A stretch of DNA of 12,919 bases from Myxococcota bacterium (GTDB lineage Bacteria > Myxococcota_A > UBA796 > UBA2385): contig JBIJDH010000056.1 in assembly GCA_044344255.1 (NCBI GenBank), positions 1-12,919 on the forward strand. The letters are read 5' to 3'. The position numbers and the translations under genes are program-made. Position 1 is the first letter of the stretch, and each line of letters opens with the position of its first letter. The notes below the pieces were generated by a model. The model saw only the letters and a list, made by a program, of their open reading frames with translations, was not told the DNA's origin and searched no databases. This document shows positions 404 to 12,917 of this stretch, in pieces.

Positions 404-3400
404 TCAACCCCTGGAGACCTCAACCACGACCCCAGCGACGGGCAGGTGAACGAAGCACCCGATCACAGGGCGCCCTGTCGCCGCGCTCACTGAGTCCGCG
501 TACGCACCGAGCTGTCCGGCATGGCCTGCGGCTGCCTCCACCACATCCGCTTCCCGACCCGGCGTGCTCTTGTGATCGACGACCACGAGGCCTGCTTCCG
601 TGTCGAGGACGAGGTCCGAGAACCCGCGCACGCCGCTGCCATCTTCGAGCGGATGGGCCAGGGGCCACTCGCGACACCATCGTGCGTCGGGCCAACGCTG
701 TGCGACCCACCCCTGGAGTCGATCCGACGCATCGAGCAGGTCCTTGGGAGGGAGCGCCCCGGCTACGCTCCAGCGCCCGAGGAGCCCTTCCGCGAGCGAG
801 TGCCGCTGCGCCGGATCGAGGTCCGCGCGGTCGGCGGCGAGGAACCCGTGTACGGCTTCGCCGAGCGCCGCCATCTCAGGGTTCCCGGTGAGCGTGAGGT
901 GGGGGCCGAGGCGCGTATGCGCGATTACGGCCCCGGCGTGGTCGAAGTCCGACGGCCGCCGGAATGCGGGCGGGTGCGCGGCGGGGCCTGGGGCGTCGAA
1001 ACCAGCGCCGGGCTCCGAATCGCGAACGACGGGATTCAACGGTGCGGGGCAGCGCAGCGTCGCCGTCACGACGCGGCCCGCCCATGTGGCGCTCGGCGTC
1101 GGCTCGTTCACCAGTGGGACTCCGCCCTCCTGCAGCAACTCGAGGAGCCCCTTCGTCAGCGCCCCGGCTCGCGTGGAGATCACGAGGCGGTCACGCGCAC
1201 GTGTCCATCCGACGTACAACACTCGGAGCTCCTGGCGCGCCTCCCGGGCCTCGGCCTCCACGGTGGCGGGGTGGGCGGCGAGGCGGGTGTGAAATGGCAG
1301 ACCGTTGTTTTTGGCCGCGTAGGGTTGGGGCCAAAAGCGCACCCAGCGGCCCGCGAGGGGTGCTGCGAAGTCGAAGCCGTCGATGTCACGGGCGACGCTC
1401 ACGCCGAGCGGGCTGCCAGTGAAGCGATTGAGCCCGTGCAGCACCACGATCGGCCACTCTAGCCCCTTTGCTGCGTGCCAGGTGCTCACCGCGACGGCCC
1501 CCCCGCCAGTGCGGACCGCCTGGGCGTCTTCGCCGTCATCGGCAAGGCGTCCGAGCCACGCGATGAGGCCAGCGGGCGTCGCGGCTGCGCCCGTGGCGGA
1601 GGCACCGGAAAGGTAGGTGACCGCGTGCGCACGCAGGCGATCCAGGTTCGCCAGGCGCGCCTCGGCGTCGCCCCAGCGCCGACAGAGCTCAGCGACGCGG
1701 GCGGCGTCTACCGCCAGGTCGAAGGCTTCGAGCGCGCCGGCACCGGGAGATCGCTCCCGAGCGGCAAGGACCCGCTGGACGACGTCCAACTTGGTGAGGG
1801 CGCCTGCGCCTGGCGTCTCAAGCAGTCGCGCGAGCCATGCGTCGAGGTCTCCGTCGCCTTCCGCGAACCGGGAGAGCTCCGCCTTCGCCAAGCTGTCCCG
1901 CCCGTCGACGAACAGCCGCAGCGCGGCCGTCGTGGCGATTGCCTCAGGGGTACTTAGGAGCCTTGCTCGTGGGAGCGCCGCGCGAATGCCAAGATTCTCC
2001 AGGGCGTCGGCAACCGCCGCGCACCCGTCATTCGTCCGGCACAAGACGGCGACGTCCCCGGCGCGAACCGCCCGCGCGTCGGCCTTGCCCTCGCGTACTC
2101 GGGTGGTGGGGTCGTCGAGGAGCTGCCGCACGCCCGCCGCGACAGCGTGAGCGTCGTTCTCGGTGCTCTTGGCGTCGAGGGTCCATCGCTCGAGAATGAC
2201 CCCGAGACCGGGGGCCTCGTCGAGGCGAGCCGGCTCGAGGCGAACCCGCTCCGCGGGGATCCCCTGCGATGGAAACGCCCGCGCGAAGAGGTCTGAGGTC
2301 AGCCGGACGAGCTCAGGCCGGCTCCTGTAGGAGTGCGGGAGGGTGCGCGGCTCCGTCTCCCCGAGGATGGCCCGGATCACCGCGTCCATCAGCGACGGGT
2401 CGGCGCCACGGAAGCCGAAGATGGCCTGCTTCTGGTCGCCGACCCACACGGAGCGGACAGCGAGCTCGGAGAGACGGAGAAAGATCGCGAGTTGGACCGG
2501 GCTGGTGTCCTGGAACTCGTCCACGAGGACCAGATCGAGCTCGCCCGCCAGGTGGGCACGGACGTCGGCGCGCCCGAGGAGCCCGAGTGCGAGCACCTCC
2601 TGGTCTGCGAAGTCGATCACGCCCCACGCGCGCTTGTGCGCCTGGTACACGTCGAGCGCCTGCCCGGCGACCGAGAACACGGTCCGGATCGCCGTCTCCA
2701 TGTCGGCTCGGAGTCGGGGGTGCCGATCCTGTGCGGCTGCGGCGGCGCGCACGGGGTCGGCGAGGGCGTCGGACTTCTGCGCCGGTGCGAGCTTCGCGAG
2801 CTTCGCCCACTCGCTCCAAAGGAGGTGCCGGCCTCGCCGGAGGTCCGCCAGCGCGCTCCCCGCGGTTTCAAGAGCCGTCGCGGTCTTCTTGGTGGTGTCC
2901 ACCGTCGTGTCTACGCTCGCGACGAACGTCGTGAGCGCCTCGACGAGGGCGCCGTCCAGATTCTCCCCTGCGACCGGCGTACCGAAGAGCTCGAGGACGC
3001 CGGCCACGCTGCGATCGGCGCACGCGGAGAGCTCGATGGTGCCGAGCCCATTGCTGCGCGCCGCGTCCAGGACGCTTCGCACCGCGGCGAGGCCGTCGAA
3101 TTCCCGCATGCGGGAGCGGAGGTCCTCGAACGTTCCGGTGACGGTGTCCGACAACACCGAGGAGAGCGCCTCGCGGAAGGACGAGGCGGAGACGGCCTCG
3201 TCGAGCACGCGCACGTCGGGAGAGAGCCCGAGTTCGAAGGAAAAGTCCGCCACGATTCGGCCACAGACCGCGTTCACCGTTCCGATTCGCGCGGCACCCA
3301 GGCGCTGGGCGTCGTCGAAGCGCCCCGCGGCTAGCAGCGTGCGCCGCGTGCGCTCCTTGAGCTCGGCGGCCGCCTTGTTCGTGAACGTCGTCGCGAGCAC

Positions 3401-3508
3401 CGCATCGGGGCGGACGCGCCCTTCGTCGATCTCCTTCTCCAGCAGTGTCGCCAGGGTGTGCGTCTTTCCGCTCCCCGCGCTCGCGGAGATGATCTCGATC
3501 TTGCTCAT
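404..3508 (-). CDS. addA: AddA/RecB-like ATP-dependent helicase-nuclease (UvrD/SF1A helicase plus C-terminal PD-(D/E)XK nuclease), about 1034 aa
   Basis: The likely start is ATG at 3508 (MSKIEIISASAGSGKT), which overlaps the upstream TGA as ATGA at 3505-3508. SF1 motifs: I ASAGSGKT, Ia TFTNKAAAELKER, II VLVDEFQDTS, III VGDQKQAIFGFRGAD, IV SYRS, IVa VAVLCRTN, V STWHAAKGLEW, VI ELRVLYVGWTRARDRL. RecB-type nuclease motifs: GEAVH, GFSDLV, VVDHKS, QLGAYA. The symbol means addA-like; orthology is not proven. Confidence 0.92.
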   Translation of the reverse strand: MSKIEIISASAGSGKTHTLATLLEKEIDEGRVRPDAVLATTFTNKAAAELKERTRRTLLAAGRFDDAQRLGAARIGTVNAVCGRIVADFSFELGLSPDVRVLDEAVSASSFREALSSVLSDTVTGTFEDLRSRMREFDGLAAVRSVLDAARSNGLGTIELSACADRSVAGVLELFGTPVAGENLDGALVEALTTFVASVDTTVDTTKKTATALETAGSALADLRRGRHLLWSEWAKLAKLAPAQKSDALADPVRAAAAAQDRHPRLRADMETAIRTVFSVAGQALDVYQAHKRAWGVIDFADQEVLALGLLGRADVRAHLAGELDLVLVDEFQDTSPVQLAIFLRLSELAVRSVWVGDQKQAIFGFRGADPSLMDAVIRAILGETEPRTLPHSYRSRPELVRLTSDLFARAFPSQGIPAERVRLEPARLDEAPGLGVILERWTLDAKSTENDAHAVAAGVRQLLDDPTTRVREGKADARAVRAGDVAVLCRTNDGCAAVADALENLGIRAALPRARLLSTPEAIATTAALRLFVDGRDSLAKAELSRFAEGDGDLDAWLARLLETPGAGALTKLDVVQRVLAARERSPGAGALEAFDLAVDAARVAELCRRWGDAEARLANLDRLRAHAVTYLSGASATGAAATPAGLIAWLGRLADDGEDAQAVRTGGGAVAVSTWHAAKGLEWPIVVLHGLNRFTGSPLGVSVARDIDGFDFAAPLAGRWVRFWPQPYAAKNNGLPFHTRLAAHPATVEAEAREARQELRVLYVGWTRARDRLVISTRAGALTKGLLELLQEGGVPLVNEPTPSATWAGRVVTATLRCPAPLNPVVRDSEPGAGFDAPGPAAHPPAFRRPSDFDHAGAVIAHTRLGPHLTLTGNPEMAALGEAVHGFLAADRADLDPAQRHSLAEGLLGRWSVAGALPPKDLLDASDRLQGWVAQRWPDARWCREWPLAHPLEDGSGVRGFSDLVLDTEAGLVVVDHKSTPGREADVVEAAAGHAGQLGAYADSVSAATGRPVIGCFVHLPVAGVVVEVSRG

Positions 3509-6141
3509 TCGCCACCCATGTTGCCGCAGAGATTTCCGAAGTTGCAGAAGCGGCAGGGAGGGGCGAGCCGGAGCCGCCCATCCTGGTCGATGTGAGAGGC
3601 CTTGATCGGCTCCGTTCCGTCGTCCCCCGCATTCCCTGACGCCTCGATCGCGCCCGCCTCGGTCGCTGCCCAGCGATCCTGCCACGCCCGCTCGAAGAGC
3701 TTCCAGGTCTCCGCAGGGCCTGGGCCCTTCACCGAAGTAGCGCCTGGGAAACGATCGGGCTCGGTGGTGTAGAGGCGCTGGTCCTGGAGGATGAAGTACG
3801 CGACCGCGGGGTATGGGGCCGTGGCGGTTGGCCGGACGAGGTGCGCGTAGGTCGCCAGCTGTGTCGAGACACCCGCGCCGAGCTCCTCGCGCCGGTACTT
3901 CGCGCCGCCCCACTTGAGGTCGATCACTGCCGGCGCCCCGTCGGTCGCGACAAGGTCGGGCGTGCCTTCCAAGGCGCCGCCCATCCCCGTGCCCGGGTAG
4001 GGCGTCTCGAGCGTCTCGATGGTGAGCCCCGCTTCCGCGAGGCTCCGGACGAGCGAGGCCACTGCGAGGCCGGCTACGCGTCGCACTCGCTCGCGTTCGT
4101 GCTCGGCGCCGGGCTGGAACAGCAGCGCCGCCCACCTCGGCGCCTCGGAGTCGAACAAGGCGACGGCTTCGGCCTCGGCGTCCTCGGGATCGGGGAGCGG
4201 GCCCGACTTCAAGACGCGCGCGATGATCTCGTGGACGAGGGAGCCGTGGAGCAGTTGCCCTTCCGGGAGCGCTGCGGTGGAGCCCCCATGCACTTTCGCC
4301 ACATGGGAGAGGGTCCACTGCAGAGAGCAGCCGACCAGTGTTGCGAGGCTCGACGGCGATTCCTTCTCACGGCGCAGGATGGTGCCGGGGCCTACCGTCC
4401 ACGCGCGGCGGGGTGCGGGTAGCGCCAGCGTGACGCGGGGCGTCGGCAGCCTCGCTGACATCGGGGCGCGCTGCACGAGCCGATCAGCGTGCGCGTCGCT
4501 CGGAATACCGGCCACAACCTCGTCCCAGAGCGGGTGGGGGTGAACGGGCGAACCATCCTCCCCGACCTCGGGGGAGACGAGCACGAGGCGTTCCGTCGTC
4601 TGCAGGAGGGGCCGACGCCAGCGTTCCGCGGAGATCATCGCGGCGGCCGCAGCGGAGGGGAGCTCCACGCCAATGGCAGCGAGCGCGCCTCTCTCCGCGC
4701 CGGAAAGCGGGAGGCGTGGCAGGGCCGGGGCGGCGTCCGCGCGGAACGACCACCAGACCACGCGGGCAGCGGGACCGACGAGCCCGGCGGGGCCCGCGAG
4801 TACGCGGAAGCCGGCCTGCGCGGGATGAGGCGCCTCGTGGCCGGCCGCGTCGGATGCGTCCTCCACGAGGCGGCGGAGCTGGGGAGCGCTGATCGGATCG
4901 AGCGCAGAGAGGTCGAGGAGGCGTCGGAAGGCCTTGGACTGGTTGAGGGCAGCGCCGTAGGCGACTGTCTCGTCCGTCGAAGTTGCCGCGCGGACCTGGA
5001 GCCAGCGGGCGAGCGCGTCCACGCGTCGGCGTGCCTCGGGTGCCGGGTAGCTGGCAGACTGGACGGTCGCGACCAGAAAGGTTTCGACGCGCGCGCGTAC
5101 GGTGGCGCGGCGCTCGGGTTCCTCCACCGCGGCGAGCGCCTCGGCAACCGCGGTCCGCCAGGCGTCGCTGTCGACCGCCGGCCACACCTGCAGCGCGGCC
5201 ACCAGCCGCCACGCCACGGAGCGGGGAATGGGGGAAATCGGGAGGGTGAGGAGCTCCAGCGCGCGCCGTGGGTCCGTGGGGGACCAGCCCAGGGCCAGGA
5301 GGAGCGGGAGGAGCTGGAGTAGGGAGCCATCTCCGTGCCCGGCGCCGCCGGTTGTTGGCAGCCCGTGGCGATGGAGCGCCGTGTCGAGCGTAGCGTCAGC
5401 GCCGATTATTACGGTGTCGACCCGATCAGGGTCGGCGGCGAGCCACGCGGCGATGGTCTCGGCGGCCTCGAGCGAACCGGCGGGCCGGACGAGCTGGAGG
5501 GATCCGTCACCCACGGGTCGGAAGCCTGGGGCGCGCGCAGCCGCGAGATCACCGCCCGCGGCTGCGGGCGCCGGAGGACATACACGGACCGTCGTCCCGC
5601 GAGCCCGCAGCGCATCCAGCACGTTCCGAACGAGGGGCGGCAGCGTCTCCTCGCGCTCGAGGAGGGTGACCAGGCCGACCTCGGGGTCGCGTGCGGCGAT
5701 CGCCCGGGCGACGACTTCGAGGCGATCGGGGGGGCCCGGCGGGACCTCCGCCGTGACCGCGGCGAGAGCGGAGAGCCGCGGCGAAACAGGTTCACCTTGC
5801 CATCCGGCGAGGCGTAGGGTGTCGCGCCAGCGCAGTAATTCGCGGGCCACGCCGAGCGGGTCAGAGAGGGTGGACTCGCTCCAGAAACCGGCCGTCGCGC
5901 GCAGCCCGGGCACGAGCGCGGCGGCGCGCGCGCCGTCGGGCAGCACGGGACCAGAGAGCCCGAGTGCCGTCTCCAGACGGTCCACCAGCCCCGAGGGACC
6001 CACGTGGGCGGTGCCAAACGACGCCGTTGCCGGTGGGAGCGCACCGGTGTCGAGGTCGGGTGCAAGGACGAATTCGAGGTGCAAGGTTGCCTCTAAAGCA
6101 TGCAGCGTCGGGAGTGGGTGCGGGGTCGTTGATGGTGTCAT
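3505..6141 (-). CDS. addB: AddB-like PD-(D/E)XK nuclease family protein with probable Fe-S cluster, 878 aa
   Basis: C-terminal nuclease motifs: ESPSSL..LVGCSLQW, HGSLVHEI, LEGTPDLV, VIDLKWG, QLATYA. The Cys pattern is one upstream Cys (4327-4329) plus C-x2-C-x5-C (CRFCNFGNLC, 3526-3555), typical of the AddB Fe-S staple. The N-terminus has no Walker A. The gene is coupled to the helicase gene by an ATGA overlap. The symbol means addB-like. Confidence 0.85.
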   Translation of the reverse strand: MTPSTTPHPLPTLHALEATLHLEFVLAPDLDTGALPPATASFGTAHVGPSGLVDRLETALGLSGPVLPDGARAAALVPGLRATAGFWSESTLSDPLGVARELLRWRDTLRLAGWQGEPVSPRLSALAAVTAEVPPGPPDRLEVVARAIAARDPEVGLVTLLEREETLPPLVRNVLDALRARGTTVRVCPPAPAAAGGDLAAARAPGFRPVGDGSLQLVRPAGSLEAAETIAAWLAADPDRVDTVIIGADATLDTALHRHGLPTTGGAGHGDGSLLQLLPLLLALGWSPTDPRRALELLTLPISPIPRSVAWRLVAALQVWPAVDSDAWRTAVAEALAAVEEPERRATVRARVETFLVATVQSASYPAPEARRRVDALARWLQVRAATSTDETVAYGAALNQSKAFRRLLDLSALDPISAPQLRRLVEDASDAAGHEAPHPAQAGFRVLAGPAGLVGPAARVVWWSFRADAAPALPRLPLSGAERGALAAIGVELPSAAAAAMISAERWRRPLLQTTERLVLVSPEVGEDGSPVHPHPLWDEVVAGIPSDAHADRLVQRAPMSARLPTPRVTLALPAPRRAWTVGPGTILRREKESPSSLATLVGCSLQWTLSHVAKVHGGSTAALPEGQLLHGSLVHEIIARVLKSGPLPDPEDAEAEAVALFDSEAPRWAALLFQPGAEHERERVRRVAGLAVASLVRSLAEAGLTIETLETPYPGTGMGGALEGTPDLVATDGAPAVIDLKWGGAKYRREELGAGVSTQLATYAHLVRPTATAPYPAVAYFILQDQRLYTTEPDRFPGATSVKGPGPAETWKLFERAWQDRWAATEAGAIEASGNAGDDGTEPIKASHIDQDGRLRLAPPCRFCNFGNLCGNMGGE

Positions 6142-6284: not shown

Positions 6285-6602
6285 TCAGGTCTTCAATTTC
6301 TCAAGGGACAAGCACACCTCGGTATGCGCGGCGCAGACTCCCACGTCGAGGATCGGCCGCCTGTAGGCGTGTCGCCCGGTCGCGTTGCCGCCGGCCTCAC
6401 CGAACCATCGACGGAAGGTCTCCGGCATGATGCCTCGCTGCACCGCGAATGCGCGTGCGCTGAGGCCGGATGTGCGCCAGGCCGCGATGAGGCGGCGGTG
6501 CTCGAGCAGTGGGTAGTGTCGGGTGCCCATCGGCAGATCCTCCAGCACGGAAGATCACCCGGGGGAGCCCGCGATGGCAGTGTCGCCAGCCTGGACGGTT
6601 AC
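6285..6602 (-). mobile_element. IS66-family remnant: putative left end plus truncated/degenerate tnpA (orfA)
   Basis: From ATG 6530, preceded by GGAGG, the frame reads MGTRHYPLLEHRRLIAAWRTSGLSARAFAVQRGIMPETFRRW. This matches the IS66 TnpA HTH pattern (I.AW..SGLS...F....G.....F..W). The minus strand from 6602 starts GTAACCGTCC, like IS66 GTAA termini, about 70 bp upstream of the ATG. No tnpB or tnpC follows. Confidence 0.65.
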
Positions 6603-6960
6603 GCCGAGTGGTCATCCACTGAGACCTCCTCGAGTCCATGATTGAGCAGAAGGTCGAGTGCGTCCTGCAGCGCGGCCGCGAGCACTACCCGGCAGCCTTC
6701 CCACCCATCATCAGCGACAACGAGCCGCAGTTCATCGCTCACGACTCTCAAGGAATTCATCAAGGTCACCGGGATGAGCCACGTTCGGGCCTCGCCCTAC
6801 TACCCACAGTCCAACTCTTCCAGAGCGGCGGAAGATCGAGCGCTACCATAAGGCGATCAAGGGCAACGCGATCCTCGTGTCCCCGCCCGCAACCCACGAT
6901 GCGCGCGACCGCAAGCTCGAGGCCGCGCGCGAGACCCGCGCCGAGCGCCGGCAAACCTCC
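6591..6960 (+). pseudogene. IS3-like transposase (rve integrase core) pseudogene fragment
   Basis: Stitching frames gives LDGY/RVVIH*DLLESMIEQKVECVLQRGREHYP..PIISDNEPQFIAHD/KEFIKVTGMSHVRASPYYPQSN/KIERYHKAIK...RDRKLEAARETRAERRQ. The DDE residues are recognisable (LDGY, ISDN, KIER). There is an in-frame TGA at 6620-6622, frameshifts near 6603, 6746 and 6815-6830, and an apparent internal deletion before RDRKLEAAR. Confidence 0.85.
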
Positions 6961-7058
6961 CGACGGCGCGGGCCGGCGCTGCCTCCTTGTTCGCTCACCC
7001 CTCGCCAGCCGATACCCGGTTCGTTACACCCATGACCTGAGAGTCCTGATCAGGCTGG

Positions 7059-7086
7059 GCCCGTACACCGATGGTGGTGTACGGGC
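7059..7086. promoter_or_regulatory. Perfect 11-bp inverted repeat upstream of the Zorya-like operon (possible operator or hairpin)
   Basis: GCCCGTACACC (7059-7069), a 6-nt spacer, then GGTGTACGGGC (7076-7086), about 40 nt before the zorA ATG. The repeat is directly visible; its function is inferred. Confidence 0.45.
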
Positions 7087-7128: not shown

Positions 7129-9141
7129 ATGCAGTTCCGTTCCGCCGCACTGGCCGTCGTCGTCGGCGTTGCCGCCGCGATTTTCGGGTTCGCGCTTGCC
7201 TGGCCTGACCCACAGAGCCTCTTCTTCGTGAGCCTTGCGGCGGGCGTCTGGTTGCTTTTTGGCGGCGGCCTACTCCTACATGTGCGTCGCGTCGAGTCCG
7301 CTGAACGCACGGTCGGGAGCGCGCAATCTCTCCCAGACCTCGAGAAGGGGCCCTGGGGTGACGTCGCCGCCACGGTCCGTGCCTCTCTCACGGGCCCGTC
7401 CGTTGCGGGCGGCGCCCCGCGCCGCACGCGGAGCGCGGCAGAAGCGCTGCGTCATGGCAACACCTCCGTGCATACCGCCATCTCCCCATTCCCGTGGCTG
7501 CACTCGGGCCAGGCAGTGCTCGTGTCCATCGGCTTGTTCGGCACCTTCTTCGGCCTCTCGCTCGGACTGCGGGAGTCGATCCCGTGTATCGACCCGCAGA
7601 ACGGCGAGCACGCGGCGTGTGTGGAGGAAGCGCTCGCCGCGGCGGACGATGGAGGCGAGGTCGACGGCGACACGCTCGCCATGCAGATGGGCATGTCGCG
7701 TCTGCTTGGCGGTGCGCGCACTGCGTTCAGCAAGTCGGTGGCCGGTATCGGGCTCGGCATGTCGTACATGCTTCTCTGGCGGCTCGCGGAGCGAAGGCGC
7801 AGCCGCCTCCTCCACTCCCTGACGAGGCGGGTGGATGGGTGGCATACGTTCGTCTCCCCGGACGAGCTCGCTCGAGAGGGCCTCGAACTGATCACGGCGG
7901 AGGTCCGCGCGCTCCGCGACGCCCAGCCTGACGGGGCTGCCCTCTCGGAAGCGGCGCGCCAGCTGGGTACGGGCGCGCGATCATTGGCGTCGGTCGCTGA
8001 TCGCCTCGGTGAGGTCTCCGCCACGCTGGGGGATTTCAAGGCAGAAACGATCGCCGCCGAGGTGTCGAAGGGCGTCAGTCGCGCCGTGGAGGACCGTCTC
8101 GCACCCACCTTGGACAACATCAGCAAGGAGCTTCGCATCCTGCACGACATGAAGCGTGAGCAGGACGAGGCCGTTGCGCGTCATCTCCGCACGCTTGTCG
8201 ACTCGCTCCGTGAGGATGCGCTGCTCCCGATATCGAGGGAAGTGGCGGCCACGAACGCGCAGACACGCGAGGTGGCCGAGGTCGTCCGGTCGCTGGGAGC
8301 GTCCGTGGCCGCCTCGACACAGGCGGTTCATCAGACCTCGGTGCAGATGGGCGAGCTGACGGTCAACCTCGCCGCGTTCCAGAAAGACGCGATTGGGCAG
8401 CTCAACGAGTTCGCGGACAGCCTGAACGGGACGCTTAGCACCTTCACCCGAGAGAGCGCCGCGAGCTTTCAGCAGATGGGCGCGGACATTCATGGGGCGG
8501 TGGGGGCCGCCGAGCTCGCGATGGTGGGACAGCGCGTGGCGTTCGAGCAGAGCGCCGCCGAGGCCCGAAACGCGTTCTCCGCGCAGACCGCCGCTTTGCG
8601 CGAAGCCGGTGAGGTGGCATCCTCCGAGATCAAGTCCGCGGGCCAGGAGGCGAGCCTCGCACTGCGAGTCGTGCGAACCGAGTTCGCCGATGCGCTATCG
8701 AGCCAGCGCGATGCGCTCGAGGGCATCCTCGGACAGCTCGAAGGGGCGTTCCGGCGGGATTTACAGGAGCGCGAGGATTTCGAGCGAAAGACCGCCGACG
8801 CCCTGAGGAAGCTAGAGAAGCTGATTGCGCGGACCGCTGCGACCGACGCGGAGCTGCGCCAAGTCTATACGGAGGCGAACCAGACCCTTGGCCGCGCGCT
8901 CGGAGAAACCGGAAGGCAGATCGCCACCCAACGCGAGGCCCTCGACGCGCTCCGCGAAGCGCTGGGCGATCATCTCCGTGCGGCGGCGGACGCGCACCGC
9001 AAGTTCCTCTCGGAGGAGGACAAGCACCTCACCGAGGTGCTCGGGAAGCTCTACGGGCTGGTGGGCGTGCTGGCAGAGACGACTCGAGTCGTTAACCAGC
9101 GCGGCGCGGCGCGGCAGGCGGCAGATGACTCCGCCCAGTGA
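7129..9141 (+). CDS. zorA: ZorA-like MotA/ExbB-family membrane protein with long alpha-helical cytoplasmic tail (Zorya defence), 670 aa
   Basis: TM motifs LVSIGLFGTFFGLSLGL and LLGGARTAFSKSVAGIGLG match the ZorA/MotA pattern (G..GTF.G...GL; LL.G...AF.xS..G). About 450 aa of Ala/Glu/Leu/Gln-rich helical tail follows. A MotB/ZorB-like gene lies in the same operon. Confidence 0.85.
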   Translation: MQFRSAALAVVVGVAAAIFGFALAWPDPQSLFFVSLAAGVWLLFGGGLLLHVRRVESAERTVGSAQSLPDLEKGPWGDVAATVRASLTGPSVAGGAPRRTRSAAEALRHGNTSVHTAISPFPWLHSGQAVLVSIGLFGTFFGLSLGLRESIPCIDPQNGEHAACVEEALAAADDGGEVDGDTLAMQMGMSRLLGGARTAFSKSVAGIGLGMSYMLLWRLAERRRSRLLHSLTRRVDGWHTFVSPDELAREGLELITAEVRALRDAQPDGAALSEAARQLGTGARSLASVADRLGEVSATLGDFKAETIAAEVSKGVSRAVEDRLAPTLDNISKELRILHDMKREQDEAVARHLRTLVDSLREDALLPISREVAATNAQTREVAEVVRSLGASVAASTQAVHQTSVQMGELTVNLAAFQKDAIGQLNEFADSLNGTLSTFTRESAASFQQMGADIHGAVGAAELAMVGQRVAFEQSAAEARNAFSAQTAALREAGEVASSEIKSAGQEASLALRVVRTEFADALSSQRDALEGILGQLEGAFRRDLQEREDFERKTADALRKLEKLIARTAATDAELRQVYTEANQTLGRALGETGRQIATQREALDALREALGDHLRAAADAHRKFLSEEDKHLTEVLGKLYGLVGVLAETTRVVNQRGAARQAADDSAQ

Positions 9142-10621
9142 CCTCTCCGCGGGCACGCTGTGGGGGAGCTTGCCCTCGCGGCAGGAGGCAGGCGCACTTC
9201 GGCCCGCCTTTCCGCAGCCGAGCACGCTGGACATCCGACCGTACGCGCTCGCGGCGCTCGCCGCCCAGCTCGCGCACGCTCCCAGCGCAGGCGGCCGCGA
9301 TGTCGGGGTTCCCTCATGGCCACCTCGTGGCTCGGGGGAGGTCTTCGCGGACATAGCCGCGGCCCGACGTGTCCTGGCGATCGAGGTGTGGACGCTGCTC
9401 GCTGATACGGAGTGGTGGGCCCGTGTGCGGACCGCGCGCGACCCGCTGGTGGCCGATGCCACCACCGCAGCCCGTGTGCTTTGGAGGCGCGCACACAGCG
9501 ATTCCGGACTTGCCTCCGACCTCCGCTGGGGTGCCGCGATGGTGCTCGGCAACCTCGGCTCGTCGACTCCGAAGGAGGTCGCGCGAACGTGGGAGAGTGC
9601 GCCGCCCGGTGACTTGCGAATTCTTGGTCTGATCGCCAATGATACTGGGATACCTCTCGCGCTCGACGCGATGTTCGCCGGGAGCTCCCCGCGCCGGTAT
9701 CTCCTCGATCGAGGATTCCCGGGCGTGCTCGGGATCGCGGACGACGCGGCCGTAGCTGGGATTCAGACGTTCCTGGCTGCGCCGTGGCCAACGCGCGAAC
9801 GATGGGTCATCGCCTGCCTGGAGGACCTCCCCCTGGCGCGCCGAGATGCGTGCGTCGACGAGATTGTCCGGTCACTCTCCGACGACGACGCGATCCAATT
9901 CGCGGCGCTGCGGGCGCGGATCCTCGCCTGGTACGCGGACGAAGGCATTTCACGTCTGTCGAGCTGGGCACAGACACGCCTTCGGCGGTGGGACGGGATG
10001 GCGAGTTGGGACGACATCGAGCGTTTCGTGGAGCGGATCTTCAACCGGCGCGTCTCTGATCTCGACCGGATGATCGGCGCACCGGCGACCGACGATGCGT
10101 TCGTCCAGGCAAGGTGGGCGCTCGGTCGAGTGGCGATCTGGTCCAACTACTCGGCGCAGTTCCGACGCGTTCGGATCTTCGTGCCGCAGCGTCAGCTGAA
10201 GCTGTTCCGGCGCCCGGACGGTAGCCTGCCCGAGAACGTGTCGCCCGCCGAAGGCGCGGAGCCCCCGTCGGCTATCTTCGCGGTGGGCGGCTACATCGTG
10301 GTGCAGTACCTCTATGACGACGTGGCCCGAGCCAACCGCGGCGGCGGCGCGCGGCGCCCGACGCTGTTCTACAAGCGTGCGCCCCCGGATGGCAGCGCAC
10401 CCAATGCAACGGATCACCCCTCCGGCATCGGCCTCGACCAGTTGGCGCCGGGCTACCTTTCGCGCCTCTCGGTTACCGCCCGTGTCGAGTGCTGGGGCGA
10501 ACTGTGGCAGCGCCGCCTCTACGAGACCATCGAGCGCCTCAACATCCCCCGGAACGCCGGCCTCGCGCGCTTCCGCGGGTTCTTGCCGAAACACCTCAAC
10601 GCCAATGGTCTGCCGAGGTAG
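9125..10621 (+). CDS. zorC: EH-signature-domain / ZorC-like protein, about 498 aa
   Basis: The probable start is ATG 9125, overlapping the zorA 3' end by 17 nt. The C-terminal half (LSSWAQTRLRRW..SWDDIERFVERIF..RVAIWSNYSAQFRRVRIF..AIFAVGGYIVVQY..LWQRRL) follows, as I recall it, the EH_Signature layout of ZorC-like proteins. Its position inside a zorA/zorB operon supports the call. Needs HMM confirmation. Confidence 0.65.
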   Translation: MTPPSDLSAGTLWGSLPSRQEAGALRPAFPQPSTLDIRPYALAALAAQLAHAPSAGGRDVGVPSWPPRGSGEVFADIAAARRVLAIEVWTLLADTEWWARVRTARDPLVADATTAARVLWRRAHSDSGLASDLRWGAAMVLGNLGSSTPKEVARTWESAPPGDLRILGLIANDTGIPLALDAMFAGSSPRRYLLDRGFPGVLGIADDAAVAGIQTFLAAPWPTRERWVIACLEDLPLARRDACVDEIVRSLSDDDAIQFAALRARILAWYADEGISRLSSWAQTRLRRWDGMASWDDIERFVERIFNRRVSDLDRMIGAPATDDAFVQARWALGRVAIWSNYSAQFRRVRIFVPQRQLKLFRRPDGSLPENVSPAEGAEPPSAIFAVGGYIVVQYLYDDVARANRGGGARRPTLFYKRAPPDGSAPNATDHPSGIGLDQLAPGYLSRLSVTARVECWGELWQRRLYETIERLNIPRNAGLARFRGFLPKHLNANGLPR

Positions 10622-10624
10622 CCG

Positions 10625-10969
10625 ATGACCGAATCCCATCCTGACCTCGCCGACCTCGTCGCTCGGATAGCGTCCTTCAACGACGTATGGCACGCGCTAC
10701 GCGACCTCTGCCCCGACGAGGACGCGGACGAGCCGAGCCTCGCGGGGCTGCGAGACCTCAAGTCCGTCTTGCAAGCTCGCCTTCTTCGGGATCCCCGCCG
10801 CGTCGCCTTCCTCATACGTGACGAGGATCCTCGTCTCGTGGAGTCCTGCTACACCGTGGCGCTCTACGAACCCCTCGCGGGACGCCGCGATGCGTGCCAC
10901 CTCCCCGAGCGGGTGGCGCGCCGCGTGCTGACGGAGCGCGAGATCAGCGCGCTTCTGGTGGAGCGATGA
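10625..10969 (+). CDS. Hypothetical 114-aa soluble protein inside the Zorya-like operon
   Basis: ATG lies 3 nt after the zorC-like TAG, with GAGGT upstream. Its TGA overlaps the zorB-like ATG (ATGA at 10966-10969). Composition is globular-protein-like (RDLKSVLQARLLR, YTVAL, DACHLPERVA). Confidence 0.8.
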   Translation: MTESHPDLADLVARIASFNDVWHALRDLCPDEDADEPSLAGLRDLKSVLQARLLRDPRRVAFLIRDEDPRLVESCYTVALYEPLAGRRDACHLPERVARRVLTEREISALLVER

Positions 10970-12096
10970 GCGAGCCCCGCCCGGAGGTAGACGGCGCTGG
11001 CGGAGAGGAGGAAATTCCCTGGCTGTCGTTCTCCGACGCGGTCACGGCGCTGCTGTTTGTGTTCATCGCGACCACGTTCTGGTTCATGTTCGAGCTTCGC
11101 CTCGCCGTGGCAAAGCAGAACGCCGAGACCGCGCGCCTCACCGGCGCGAACGTTGCTGCCGGGCAGCTCCTTCAGGGAGTGGAGGTATGTCTCACCCAGC
11201 GCACAACCGAAGGCGTTCGTGTTCGTCCGGTGGTCGAAAAGGACTCCCGGACAATGTCCCTCTACATCGAGCCGCGGGCGAGTACGGTTGTGGAGTGGTT
11301 CCAAGTTTGTAGCGCGCAGATCACGGATGACGCCGCGGCCGTTGTGGACATGGCTCGCGACTGCCTCGCGAAGGAAGTTCCTGGCCTGACCGACGACTAC
11401 ACCGTAGTCCTCACGCTGGAGGGCCACACTGACGCCCGCCCTCCGATGTCGAACTGCCGGGAGCGGTTCCCCTCGAATTGGGAGCTGTCGGGCGCACGGG
11501 CAGGCGCCGCGTTGCGCCGCTTGCTCTGCGAAGACGGACAGTGCACGCCGGATGCGCTGGCGAGCGCTGCTGATCTCCGTGCTCTGGCACAGGACCGCGA
11601 CCGCCTCCAGGTTGTAGCAGCCGGGCGCGCCGAGTCGATCCCCGCTTGGCGCGCGCTCTGCGCCACCGACTGGACGGGGGCCGCCGCGCTGCCGGAGCTC
11701 GATCGGGCTGTCTGTGCGGCATTGTCCGACGAAGACACTCCGCTTTCGACGCGCGTCGCATCCGTACGGACAGAGATCTCCGCCGCGCTCGGGACCGGGT
11801 ACTTCGGCCGCACGCTCGACACATCCGATCTCGCGCTCGTCGCCTGGGCCAACGATCCGGGGTGCATGGGGGGCAAGGGAGATGCTGCCATCTGTGCGGA
11901 GCGGTTCAGACGACTTCGGCGGGTGGACATGCGCGTGGATCTGCGGCCGCGCCCAGGTGCTGCGGAAGATCGGGCGCGTGCCGACCGTAAGGCGCTAGGC
12001 GCGCGGCCGAATATTGTTCCCACGTCGCGGGGCGCTGCGGTCGGCGCGACACTCGAGGGCATCGCCAATGTTCCGGAGCTTGGCGAGGATGAATGA
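10966..12096 (+). CDS. zorB: ZorB-like MotB/OmpA-family protein with Cys-rich periplasmic region, about 376 aa
   Basis: The start is ATG 10966 (ATGA overlap). A single N-terminal TM, WLSFSDAVTALLFVFI, carries the conserved ion-conducting Asp (D24, 11035-11037). OmpA-like peptidoglycan-binding motifs are LEGHTD, NWELSGARA, AAGRAESIP and RRVDMRV. Confidence 0.88.
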   Translation: MSEPRPEVDGAGGEEEIPWLSFSDAVTALLFVFIATTFWFMFELRLAVAKQNAETARLTGANVAAGQLLQGVEVCLTQRTTEGVRVRPVVEKDSRTMSLYIEPRASTVVEWFQVCSAQITDDAAAVVDMARDCLAKEVPGLTDDYTVVLTLEGHTDARPPMSNCRERFPSNWELSGARAGAALRRLLCEDGQCTPDALASAADLRALAQDRDRLQVVAAGRAESIPAWRALCATDWTGAAALPELDRAVCAALSDEDTPLSTRVASVRTEISAALGTGYFGRTLDTSDLALVAWANDPGCMGGKGDAAICAERFRRLRRVDMRVDLRPRPGAAEDRARADRKALGARPNIVPTSRGAAVGATLEGIANVPELGEDE

Positions 12097-12148: not shown

Positions 12149-12596
12149 CTATGCGAGGTAGGTCCGATGCCCCTCCGTGAGCCCGCGGACACGCCGATGC
12201 CGGTCGAGCCCCAGCACGCCGAGCGCGTGGTCGTCGAGCGAGGCCGAGACAACCACCCGCCCGTCATCCTTCACGGTGATGAGCCCCACGTCGAAGGCGG
12301 CGTCCAGGTGGGCTGTGCGCAACAGCCCGTTGTACACGTCGAGGCGCTCCCGGTCGGTCTCGCAGTCCTTCCAGGGGCGGGCGTGGCTGGCGCGCAGCAG
12401 GCGGGGGACGGCGAGCCCGGAGATGGCGCAGCGCCCCTCCCAGAGGTCGAGCAGGCCGCCGCGGTAGAGGTCCTGGCCCACGCGCTCGACGACGAGCCGC
12501 TCGGCCTCGGTGCTGCGGGGGAGGCTGGCGGTGCGGGTTGCGATGGTGTCGTAGAGCGCGTCGGGGAGGGGTCTGGGCCAGGAGGAGGGCGCGGCG
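12149..12596 (-). pseudogene. HNH endonuclease (HNH_2-type) fragment, 5'-truncated and frameshifted
   Basis: TEAERLVVERVGQDLYRGGLLDLWEGRCAISGLAVPRLLRASHARPW...LDVYNGLL..HLDAAFD.GLIT is the typical RxGQ..R..C..SG..L.ASH..PW..NGL family pattern. An extra C at 12568-12571 breaks RRALLLAQT/LPDAL. The frame ends YLA-TAG where homologues usually continue YLxWHR. No start codon of its own is evident. Confidence 0.8.
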
Positions 12597-12917
12597 CTCC
12601 AGGTCGTCGAGGGTGCGGGCGAGGGCCTCGTCACCCCCCTCGTCGAGATCTGCCCACAGACAGGCGGTGGCCACGACGCCGGCCTTGGTGCCGTCGCGCC
12701 CCTCGCGCACCGCGCCGGCCACCCAGACGTGGCGCCCTACGGGGGCTCGGTAGGCGGCGAGGGCCTCGGCGCTGCCGAACCACTCGCGGCGCTCAAGCTG
12801 CGGCCGACCCCACCGGGGGCCGCCGTCGGGGCCTGCGGGGAGCGGGCGCTCCGGTCGCATCACCCGGACCTCGATCTCCCGGCCCGGGGTCAGGAGCGTG
12901 GGCGGGAACAGGATCGA
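12597..12917 (-). pseudogene. RepB-type DNA primase (AEP-like) N-terminal fragment, 5' end outside the window
   Basis: The frame is open from the window edge: ..PGREIEVRV..WFGSAEAL..HVWVAGAVREGRDGTKAGVVATACLWADLD. This resembles the RepB-primase N-terminus (iEvR; vy.g...R; G.k..V; lwaDlD). The downstream SG.G.H motif is absent because the frame runs into HNH-like sequence. Confidence 0.5.

Follow-up and report, generated by a model that had tools for sequence, protein, structure and literature searches.

What does a Zorya operon do when it encodes no recognisable nuclease and its two motor genes stand apart, and how does such an operon arise? The question is raised by a contig of 12,919 nt (the window; JBIJDH010000056.1, contig C61 in our numbering, analysed in its complete length) from a Myxococcota genome (GCA_044344255.1, here G000; 8.2 Mb, 71% GC, 95% complete), in which four intact plus-strand open reading frames (ORFs) follow one another in the order zorA, zorC-like, X and zorB. 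The comparisons below indicate that this is very probably a hybrid, a relative of Zorya with a mosaic origin. That it is a ZorD-less anti-phage operon with a non-nuclease output is the interpretation we favour, with considerably less assurance. The parts of the operon are as follows.

7129..9141, plus strand: zorA, 670 aa (PADLOC ZorA1 PDLC00597, E 5.7e-35)
7876..7968, plus strand: switch zone within zorA, residues ~250-280, approximate (sliding 70-residue profile windows)
9125..10621, plus strand: zorC-like gene, 498 aa, X-lineage ZorC family (PADLOC ZorC1 PDLC00618, E 4.2e-15)
10625..10969, plus strand: ORF X, 114 aa, soluble alpha/beta protein of an unnamed Zorya-linked family
10966..12096, plus strand: zorB, 376 aa (PADLOC ZorB1 PDLC00608, E 1e-13)
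11629..11919, plus strand: helical cysteine-rich insert of ZorB, ~95 aa, residues ~222-318, part of the periplasmic domain in the model

The initial annotation of this DNA had described a tightly coupled operon of zorA, a zorC-like gene, an unknown ORF and zorB that lacks zorD and zorE. ORF calls and a scan with the protein models of PADLOC-DB 2.0.0 bore this out: ZorA1, ZorC1 and ZorB1 matched three of the four proteins and no model matched X. The junctions read exactly as claimed, with an overlap of 17 nt between zorA and zorC-like, a 3-nt gap before X and an ATGA overlap of X and zorB. PADLOC found no zorD on the contig, about 800 bp of which remain 3' of zorB; no co-oriented zorE lies in that part, and neither ZorF (DUF3348) nor ZorG (DUF2894) gave a PADLOC or Pfam match on the four proteins at E<=1. 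Misassembly does not account for the order, since contigs from two public DNA runs span the A/C and the C/X/B junctions with zero indels (the study of one of these runs is not marked as a possible source of the window) and since the order recurs in a second genome, at locus L105.

ZorA consists of a membrane motor domain, with hydrophobic peaks in the protein at residues 1-28, 30-52 and 127-148, and a helical tail of ~420 aa. T139 and S203 lie within conserved motor motifs and are candidates for the Thr/Ser ion filter (T147 and S184 in E. coli). The NCBIfam ZorA models match the protein as well, with scores under their cut-offs. Motor and tail point to different relatives. In windows of 70 residues, the profile of the lineage with a long form of ZorB (described below) scored higher through 201-270 and the profile of the X lineage, i.e. 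of the ZorD-less Zorya loci that carry X, scored higher from 251-320 on, with a single near tie at 551-620; the ZorA proteins of L105 and of a further relative, L116, gave a similar pattern. After L116 and L105, the nearest motor domains were those of L120, L118 and L119 (E 4e-21 to 1e-17), and all X-lineage proteins ranked lower, at E 1e-9 or weaker. For the tail the ranking was inverted: X-lineage tails matched from 5e-19 downwards and L118-L120 at E 0.18-26. A tail profile of 45 X-lineage proteins gave 130 bits for the window, 105 for L116 and 59 for L105, and 11, 4 and 2 bits for L120, L119 and L118, respectively; L044 reached 36 bits, the remaining ZorA proteins <=17, and reversed tails stayed below 0. 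Base composition does not seem to be the cause, since the motors of L032, L121 and L128, which are high-GC X-lineage representatives from the same class, are among the low-ranking ones.

The motor tree was computed under LG+G4, with no mixture model, from 26 rows picked out of 74 (12 of the X lineage, 8 others). It united the six long-ZorB motors (window, L105, L116 and L118-L120) at 95/91, adjoined by two ZorA proteins of loci bearing the EH residues (89/86). Grouping of the split-order motors with the X lineage was rejected in the approximately unbiased (AU) test (p-AU 0.003), and a mixture-model tree of all 74 rows, run in quick mode, recovered the same long-ZorB motor clade with a support of 98 in the Shimodaira-Hasegawa-like approximate likelihood-ratio test (SH-aLRT). 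Sequence comparison thereby identifies ZorA as a mosaic, with a motor from the long-ZorB lineage, which includes canonical type I operons, and a tail from the X lineage.

The ZorC1 match of the second protein covers profile positions 97-340 of 495 only, i.e. the N-terminal and middle part. Scored with a profile of 30 X-lineage ZorC proteins from which the window was left out, the window ZorC reached E 2.8e-26 and that of L116 1.7e-21; the type I ZorC of L120 was at E 0.004, and L105, L118 and L119 were undetected. These scores place ZorC, like the ZorA tail, in the X lineage. The initial annotation had called the gene EH-signature-like, and of this description the homology to ZorC stood and the signature did not: the EH columns are occupied by Q394 and W457 in the window (E in 29/30 and H in 30/30 of the relatives), and Pfam EH_Signature did not match the window ZorC. 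The split-order group as a whole (the four ZorC proteins of the window, P0002, L105 and L116) lacks both residues, and the window protein is without the last helix found in its relatives, as judged by comparison with their consensus. In E. coli ZorC, E400A or H443A abolishes defence and both residues are needed for DNA binding (PMC11946911). A complex prediction for ZorC and X, made with the L107 pair and 31-row alignments, scored 0.08 against a mark of 0.32 and decides neither way.

The AlphaFold model of X has a mean predicted local distance difference test score (pLDDT) of 93.9 and consists of a helical hairpin, three strands and two short helices. Close relatives were retrieved with the window protein as query; its phmmer matches included two genes directly 5' of zorA in loci that had been retrieved through their ZorA. 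A search of 1.84 billion representatives with a profile built from five sequences yielded 160 proteins. In the alignment (n=107; the window protein, P0005 and 105 of the 150 listed matches, with fragments and long forms omitted), N19, K46, Q50, H92 and P94 are invariant and W22 is present in 106/107; the window X keeps all of them. No Pfam or PHROGs family matched more than 1/107 members at E<=0.05, no PADLOC model and no useful PDB sequence was matched, and matches in the Atlas were all under 0.9 or none. Foldseek against PDB and BFVD returned nothing at E<=0.001, which is no evidence for a new fold or for a difference from known folds, and the best VIA-align hit (Z 8.1) was confined to the helical hairpin, residues 2-57. 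Two candidate identities were dropped: a likeness to YkyB-like proteins, to which the Pfam scan gave no support, and a detached C-terminal domain of ZorC, as the retrieved type I ZorC proteins end right after the conserved Trp.

X occurs mostly beside Zorya genes. A scan of 185,579 genomes with a single motif pattern, which yields a pattern-limited sample, gave 52 loci, mostly from cyanobacteria, plus Vibrio, Shewanella and Paraferrimonas. Their orders are X-A-B-C (32, three of them behind a type II operon), X-A-B (5), A-B-C-X (5), X-A (4) and, once each, C-X, X-A-C and A-C-X-B; two loci lack an intact X frame and in one, near a contig end, X is alone. X lies <=100 bp from zorA or zorC in 49/52. 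Among 72,556 plasmids the ZorA query matched a single record and so did the X query; both times it was the Nostoc sp. HK-01 plasmid AP018320 (order X-A-B-C), where the matched genes are adjacent. In the class of the window, 6/182 genomes contain X, beside zorA or zorC in five; the sixth, G445, has a weak X-like match (E 3e-5) within a longer protein. Neither the ZorC query nor the X query found a relative in viral contigs. These sequences show X to be a fixed member of a ZorD-less Zorya lineage, the typical form of which is X-A-B-C and of which the split order is a less frequent branch with a mosaic make-up.

Some variants of X and its operons were seen on the way, in part by eye. The longer protein of G445 (L129:4050-4937) has its X-like domain before a TPR-like region, P0070 has one after a CxxC-bearing N-terminus, and P0056 is among further longer proteins with an X-like domain. 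In P0151 the N-terminal half of X is fused to the end of a ZorA tail, perhaps as the product of a deletion. Two Anabaena genomes (L099 and L101, about 10001-10234) contain partial X remnants with no Zorya gene nearby, and the genes around these remnants are similar to the ones at the A-B-C-X locus L075, so that an operon may have been deleted. Four operons (L079, L083, L084 and L096) have two tandem zorB-like genes in an X-A-B-B-C arrangement.

The last gene of the window encodes the long, cysteine-rich form of ZorB. D24 in the transmembrane helix and N171, L174 and R178 are kept in 39/39 relatives; the latter three are spaced like E. coli N152, L155 and R159, and the counterpart of Y151 is S170. 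An essential Asp and peptidoglycan-binding residues, to which the spacing in the window corresponds, are described for E. coli ZorB (PMC11946911). Judged by the alignment, the residues of motor and peptidoglycan binding are intact. In the model (pLDDT 87.5) a continuous helix, residues 19-78, runs from the membrane into an OmpA-type peptidoglycan-binding domain with no plug linker, and the C-terminal 30 residues have low confidence; the top Foldseek match is the type I ZorB 8vvn_B (E 3.9e-5). The insert is modelled as six helices between strands 214-220 and 320-328. Its cysteines C232, C250 and C300, invariant in 39/39, may form disulfides. The long ZorB was found in 45 proteins, in 7/182 genomes of the class and in 2/401 genomes of the phylum sample, both from the order to which the window belongs.

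All three class genomes with the split order (3/182) carry this long ZorB. L105, in G021 from the same family as the genome of the window, has A-C-X-B with overlaps of 8 nt, ATGA and ATGA, and its proteins are 31% (A), 43% (X) and 49% (B) identical to those of the window by BLAST and ~25% (C) by alignment only. L116, in G477 from another family of the same order, reads A-C-B. The proteins P0002 (ZorC-like) and P0168 (long ZorB), which share a longest contig of 39,285 bp on which the order is not visible, hint at a fourth case. At the remaining long-ZorB loci zorA and zorB are adjacent wherever both are visible: G453 has A-B-C-D, G466 and G467 have A-B and a 444-aa gene without assignment, and G393 has B-C and a SNF2-type frame (by eye), with zorA beyond the contig. 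In G003 (L117:8439-10207) a tail-less ZorA of 253 aa is coupled to a long ZorB and no ZorC was seen. A metagenome scan with the long ZorB returned one locus, which ends at the start of zorB and is uninformative on order. Two other loci came up in these comparisons: an unannotated A-B-C-D-like operon on the Azospirillum oryzae plasmid NZ_CP054621 (L134:2082-9755, read from the ORF list), and a 5-kb contig in a Legionellaceae bin (L089) with a ZorA motor near-identical to that of a cyanobacterial bin (L093), which is probably misbinned.

To what extent the X lineage lacks ZorD was assessed with Pfam on 82 proteins, i.e. the co-oriented neighbours and all frames of at least 750 aa at loci L055-L107 (two spurious frames dropped) together with the control L120. 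SNF2-rel_dom matched 3/82. One was the control, a true ZorD (PADLOC E 1e-135) in an A-B-C-D operon; the second, at L087, is a DUF3670-type helicase on the opposite strand, ~5 kb off; the third, at L055, is a 949-aa gene 424 bp 3' of zorC that heads a helicase-methylase-helicase run, which we read as DISARM-like. No recognisable ZorD is present among the 81 neighbouring or large proteins of the 53 loci, several of which end at contig edges, so that the absence holds for the set rather than for each locus. Vibrio and Paraferrimonas have large genes 3' of zorC that encode type I restriction subunits, the downstream SNF2 gene of G383 is matched far better by PDC-M27C and ZacC than by ZorD, and the neighbours 3' of X-lineage operons are not conserved. 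Elsewhere in G000, two ZorD models matched SNF2 cores only, on other contigs, and such matches also occur in 9-10 of 14 control genomes; a query for ZorD in trans in five X-lineage genomes likewise met the SNF2 core only.

Several of these loci adjoin other defence genes. The X-A-B-C operon of G383 (L032:422-6785) continues into a three-gene set resembling Azaca/PDC-M27 (unknown, PLD, SNF2), and G021 has a separate type I zorC-zorD pair with an EH-bearing ZorC on a short contig (L130:260-3824). In three Vibrio genomes (L100, L102 and L103, about 6300-15900) X-A-B-C is preceded directly by a type II Zorya, the ZorE of which was verified in L102 (E 5e-174), and is followed by a type I restriction subunit; their ZorC proteins have an extension of 170-280 aa with SEL1-like repeats.

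Set against the known systems, the locus resembles type I (zorABCD; E. coli NCTC9026, PMC11946911; Shewanella ANA-3 ZorAB, 8vvn) in the ZorA motor with its long tail, in the essential Asp and the N-x2-L-x3-R peptidoglycan-binding spacing of ZorB, in having a ZorC homologue, and in a motor half placed together with those of canonical type I operons from its own taxonomic order (L120). It differs from type I in its A-C-X-B order, the lack of ZorD, a ZorC without E and H, the extra X, a ZorB that is ~130 aa longer than the 246-aa 8qyd chain and bears the cysteine-rich insert, and a tail of foreign lineage. With the X-A-B-C cassette, e.g. that of the Nostoc plasmid, it shares X, the ZorC family, the ZorA tail and the absence of ZorD; unlike there, motor and short (~220 aa) ZorB are replaced, the EH residues are lost, and zorA and zorB are apart. 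Types II (zorABE) and III (zorF/zorG; PMC8565338) have the ZorAB core in common with the window, and type III is also without an annotated nuclease, but the window has no match to ZorE, ZorF or ZorG and does have a ZorC homologue. The operon is conserved, is not assignable to types I-III and is a new Zorya variant. Its subtype is defined by X together with the missing ZorD; beyond this cassette, the window contributes a mosaic ZorA, split stator genes, a long ZorB and a ZorC that has lost EH.

The claim of a distinct Zorya subtype also held up against the literature, where no named subtype with this arrangement was found. The searches covered full text, outside supplements and subscription papers, and returned no ZorD-less Zorya with a small fourth gene, no split zorA/zorB order and no natural chimera of motor and tail; supplementary tables could list such loci. 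PMC11946911 covers zorABCD, zorABE and zorFABG/zorGABF and excludes non-canonical orders, and a cosmid with zorABC only, of unknown function, is reported in bioRxiv 2024.04.05.588314. The X-lineage A, B and C proteins are already catalogued, since PADLOC has models for them under type I names (PDLC00597/609/618), and the gene set is unnamed in print as far as searched.

How did the split order come about, and what might the operon do? The order would follow if a tail-C-X cassette had been inserted into a type I motor operon. A segment comprising the tail, zorC and X would have recombined into zorA of a long-ZorB operon, replacing the old tail and pushing zorB to the end; C precedes X, as this donor would have it, in the five A-B-C-X loci. 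By analogy with the E. coli type I system, disturbance of the envelope by a phage would make ZorA5B2 anchor to peptidoglycan, ion flow through Asp24 would turn ZorA, and the tail would recruit its cognate ZorC and X, for which the genetic linkage of the three suggests mutual binding. In E. coli, tail and motor are needed to recruit ZorC and ZorD, and ZorC/D of other species failed to complement (PMC11946911); this failure and the joint travel of tail, ZorC and X fit a tail that recruits its partners. ZorC may act as a scaffold, with no DNA cutting by the operon itself, which we regard as the most likely output because there is neither a nuclease nor an EH site. The initial annotation proposed a different effector logic, and we infer the same. 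Our preferred, frankly tentative guess for the output is arrest of the infected cell, brought about by an X-dependent step or by a controlled leak of ions via the motor.

A number of observations weigh against this interpretation. The ZorC of L105 was missed by the X-lineage profile and by PADLOC and was assigned by its position and a 24-25% alignment. The long-ZorB profile was built from 3 sequences only, and the motor trees comprise 132 columns and are unrooted, so that the direction of transfer is read from gene order alone. The split order is known from three genomes of one order, which are kin. With both EH equivalents missing in the window ZorC, defence may, to judge from E. coli, be lost or changed. 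X is dispensable in one branch, that of G477, where the operon lacking it is flanked by apparent housekeeping genes, and this loss speaks more than anything else against X being an essential effector. Lastly, the X-like match of G445 lies on a 5-kb contig without a Zorya gene.

Some of these points would suit a Zorya-derived machine reused for a job other than defence, e.g. envelope sensing or anchoring, in which the motor is kept and the EH residues, and X in one branch, are lost. The absence of EH from all four split-order ZorC proteins, the setting of L116 among apparent housekeeping genes and the new periplasmic insert modelled in ZorB are in line with such reuse. We nevertheless think it improbable: the spread is patchy rather than core (the long ZorB in 7/182 class genomes), mobile and defence genes neighbour the operon at the window and at L105, the latter adjoined by a PtuA-like ATPase, and canonical A-B-C-D operons use the long ZorB too. 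Rather less probable still is a module that only senses and recruits a nuclease encoded elsewhere, such as an orphan ZorD, a restriction enzyme or a host nuclease. G021 does have its zorC-zorD on another contig, some X-A-B-C loci are followed by type I restriction, DISARM-like or Azaca/PDC-M27-like genes, and a gene could be missing from a genome that is 95% complete. The SNF2-core matches of G000 are, on the other hand, of the kind seen in most control genomes, the genes downstream of X-lineage operons vary, and cross-species complementation with ZorC/D failed in E. coli (PMC11946911).

Could the locus instead be a decaying, inactive remnant of type I Zorya with a chance gene in its middle? 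The missing ZorD, the lost EH residues, an insertion sequence (IS) remnant upstream, an HNH fragment downstream and the low-confidence end of the ZorB model have that appearance. Conservation largely refutes it and leaves it a very small probability: the four frames are open and coupled, order and coupling persist in L105 at 25-54% protein identity, every catalogued invariant residue of X and ZorB is kept, the two public runs show zero indels, and X is linked to Zorya in 49/52 loci. An ordinary MotAB, ExbBD or TolQR stator pair, finally, is refuted, with hardly any probability remaining. Such a pair could be read from weak NCBIfam matches of the fourth protein to MotS, MotD and MotB (best E 6e-9), but these reach <=36 bits against cut-offs of >=260 for the top two, and the PADLOC ZorA and ZorB models score higher. 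The ~420-aa tail, the ZorB model with no plug linker, its structural match to 8vvn and the coupled ZorC homologue also speak for ZorAB rather than ExbBD, TolQR or flagellar stators, as initially annotated.

Returning to the hybrid ZorD-less operon, a bolder version of it, which we consider doubtful, would make the tail, ZorC and X a portable effector cassette grafted onto a foreign motor, with X as a new effector that has its active or binding site at the conserved N/W/K/Q/H residues and an operon that, with its EH site lost, defends against phage without DNA binding or cutting. If true, this would be a fourth Zorya output; in both current models the final step belongs to a nuclease that the ZorA tail recruits (PMC11946911, PMC11890865). 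For the question of how the tail picks its partners, the locus offers a natural swap: the motor is exchanged and tail, ZorC and X stay together, which predicts that partner specificity resides in the tail past about residue 280. The locus is also a compact test of Zorya action without ZorD and an EH site, and the unnamed family of 110 aa would be the missing component of a widespread, mostly cyanobacterial form of Zorya. Such forms would have been missed because published surveys filtered out non-canonical orders. The arrangement suggests that Zorya parts are swappable as modules.

The operon is bordered on either side by gene fragments.

6590..7069, plus strand: IS3-type transposase remnant, frameshifted, ending 60 bp 5' of zorA
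12149..12634, minus strand: piece of an HNH_2 endonuclease gene (Pfam HNH_2, E 5.8e-8), convergent to the operon

The gene after zorB is convergent, as had been noted. PADLOC HNH PDLC04132 matches it over profile positions 143-233 of 286, its N-terminal part being apparently absent, and no ZorE model matched at E<=1; it is therefore not ZorE. A sigma-70 promoter was searched for in vain and terminator-like sites were at chance level. Five short contigs (151-231 bp) from two metatranscriptomes cover zorC, X and the end of zorB, which is insufficient to show transcription. At least half of the sampled words of the window are present in 18 freshwater DNA runs, among which 13 studies are left once possible source studies are set aside. 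The transposase remnant, the IS3 label of which is our reading of the translated copy rather than a library match, has a copy on contig C7 and further pieces at 89-92% identity. It is abutted by a second repeat (6382-6606 of the window) with 86-91% copies on contigs C35, C26 and C11. On the minus strand, divergent from zorA, an AddAB-like pair occupies positions 404-6141 and consists of a PD-(D/E)XK nuclease gene (878 aa) followed by a UvrD helicase-nuclease gene (~1028 aa).

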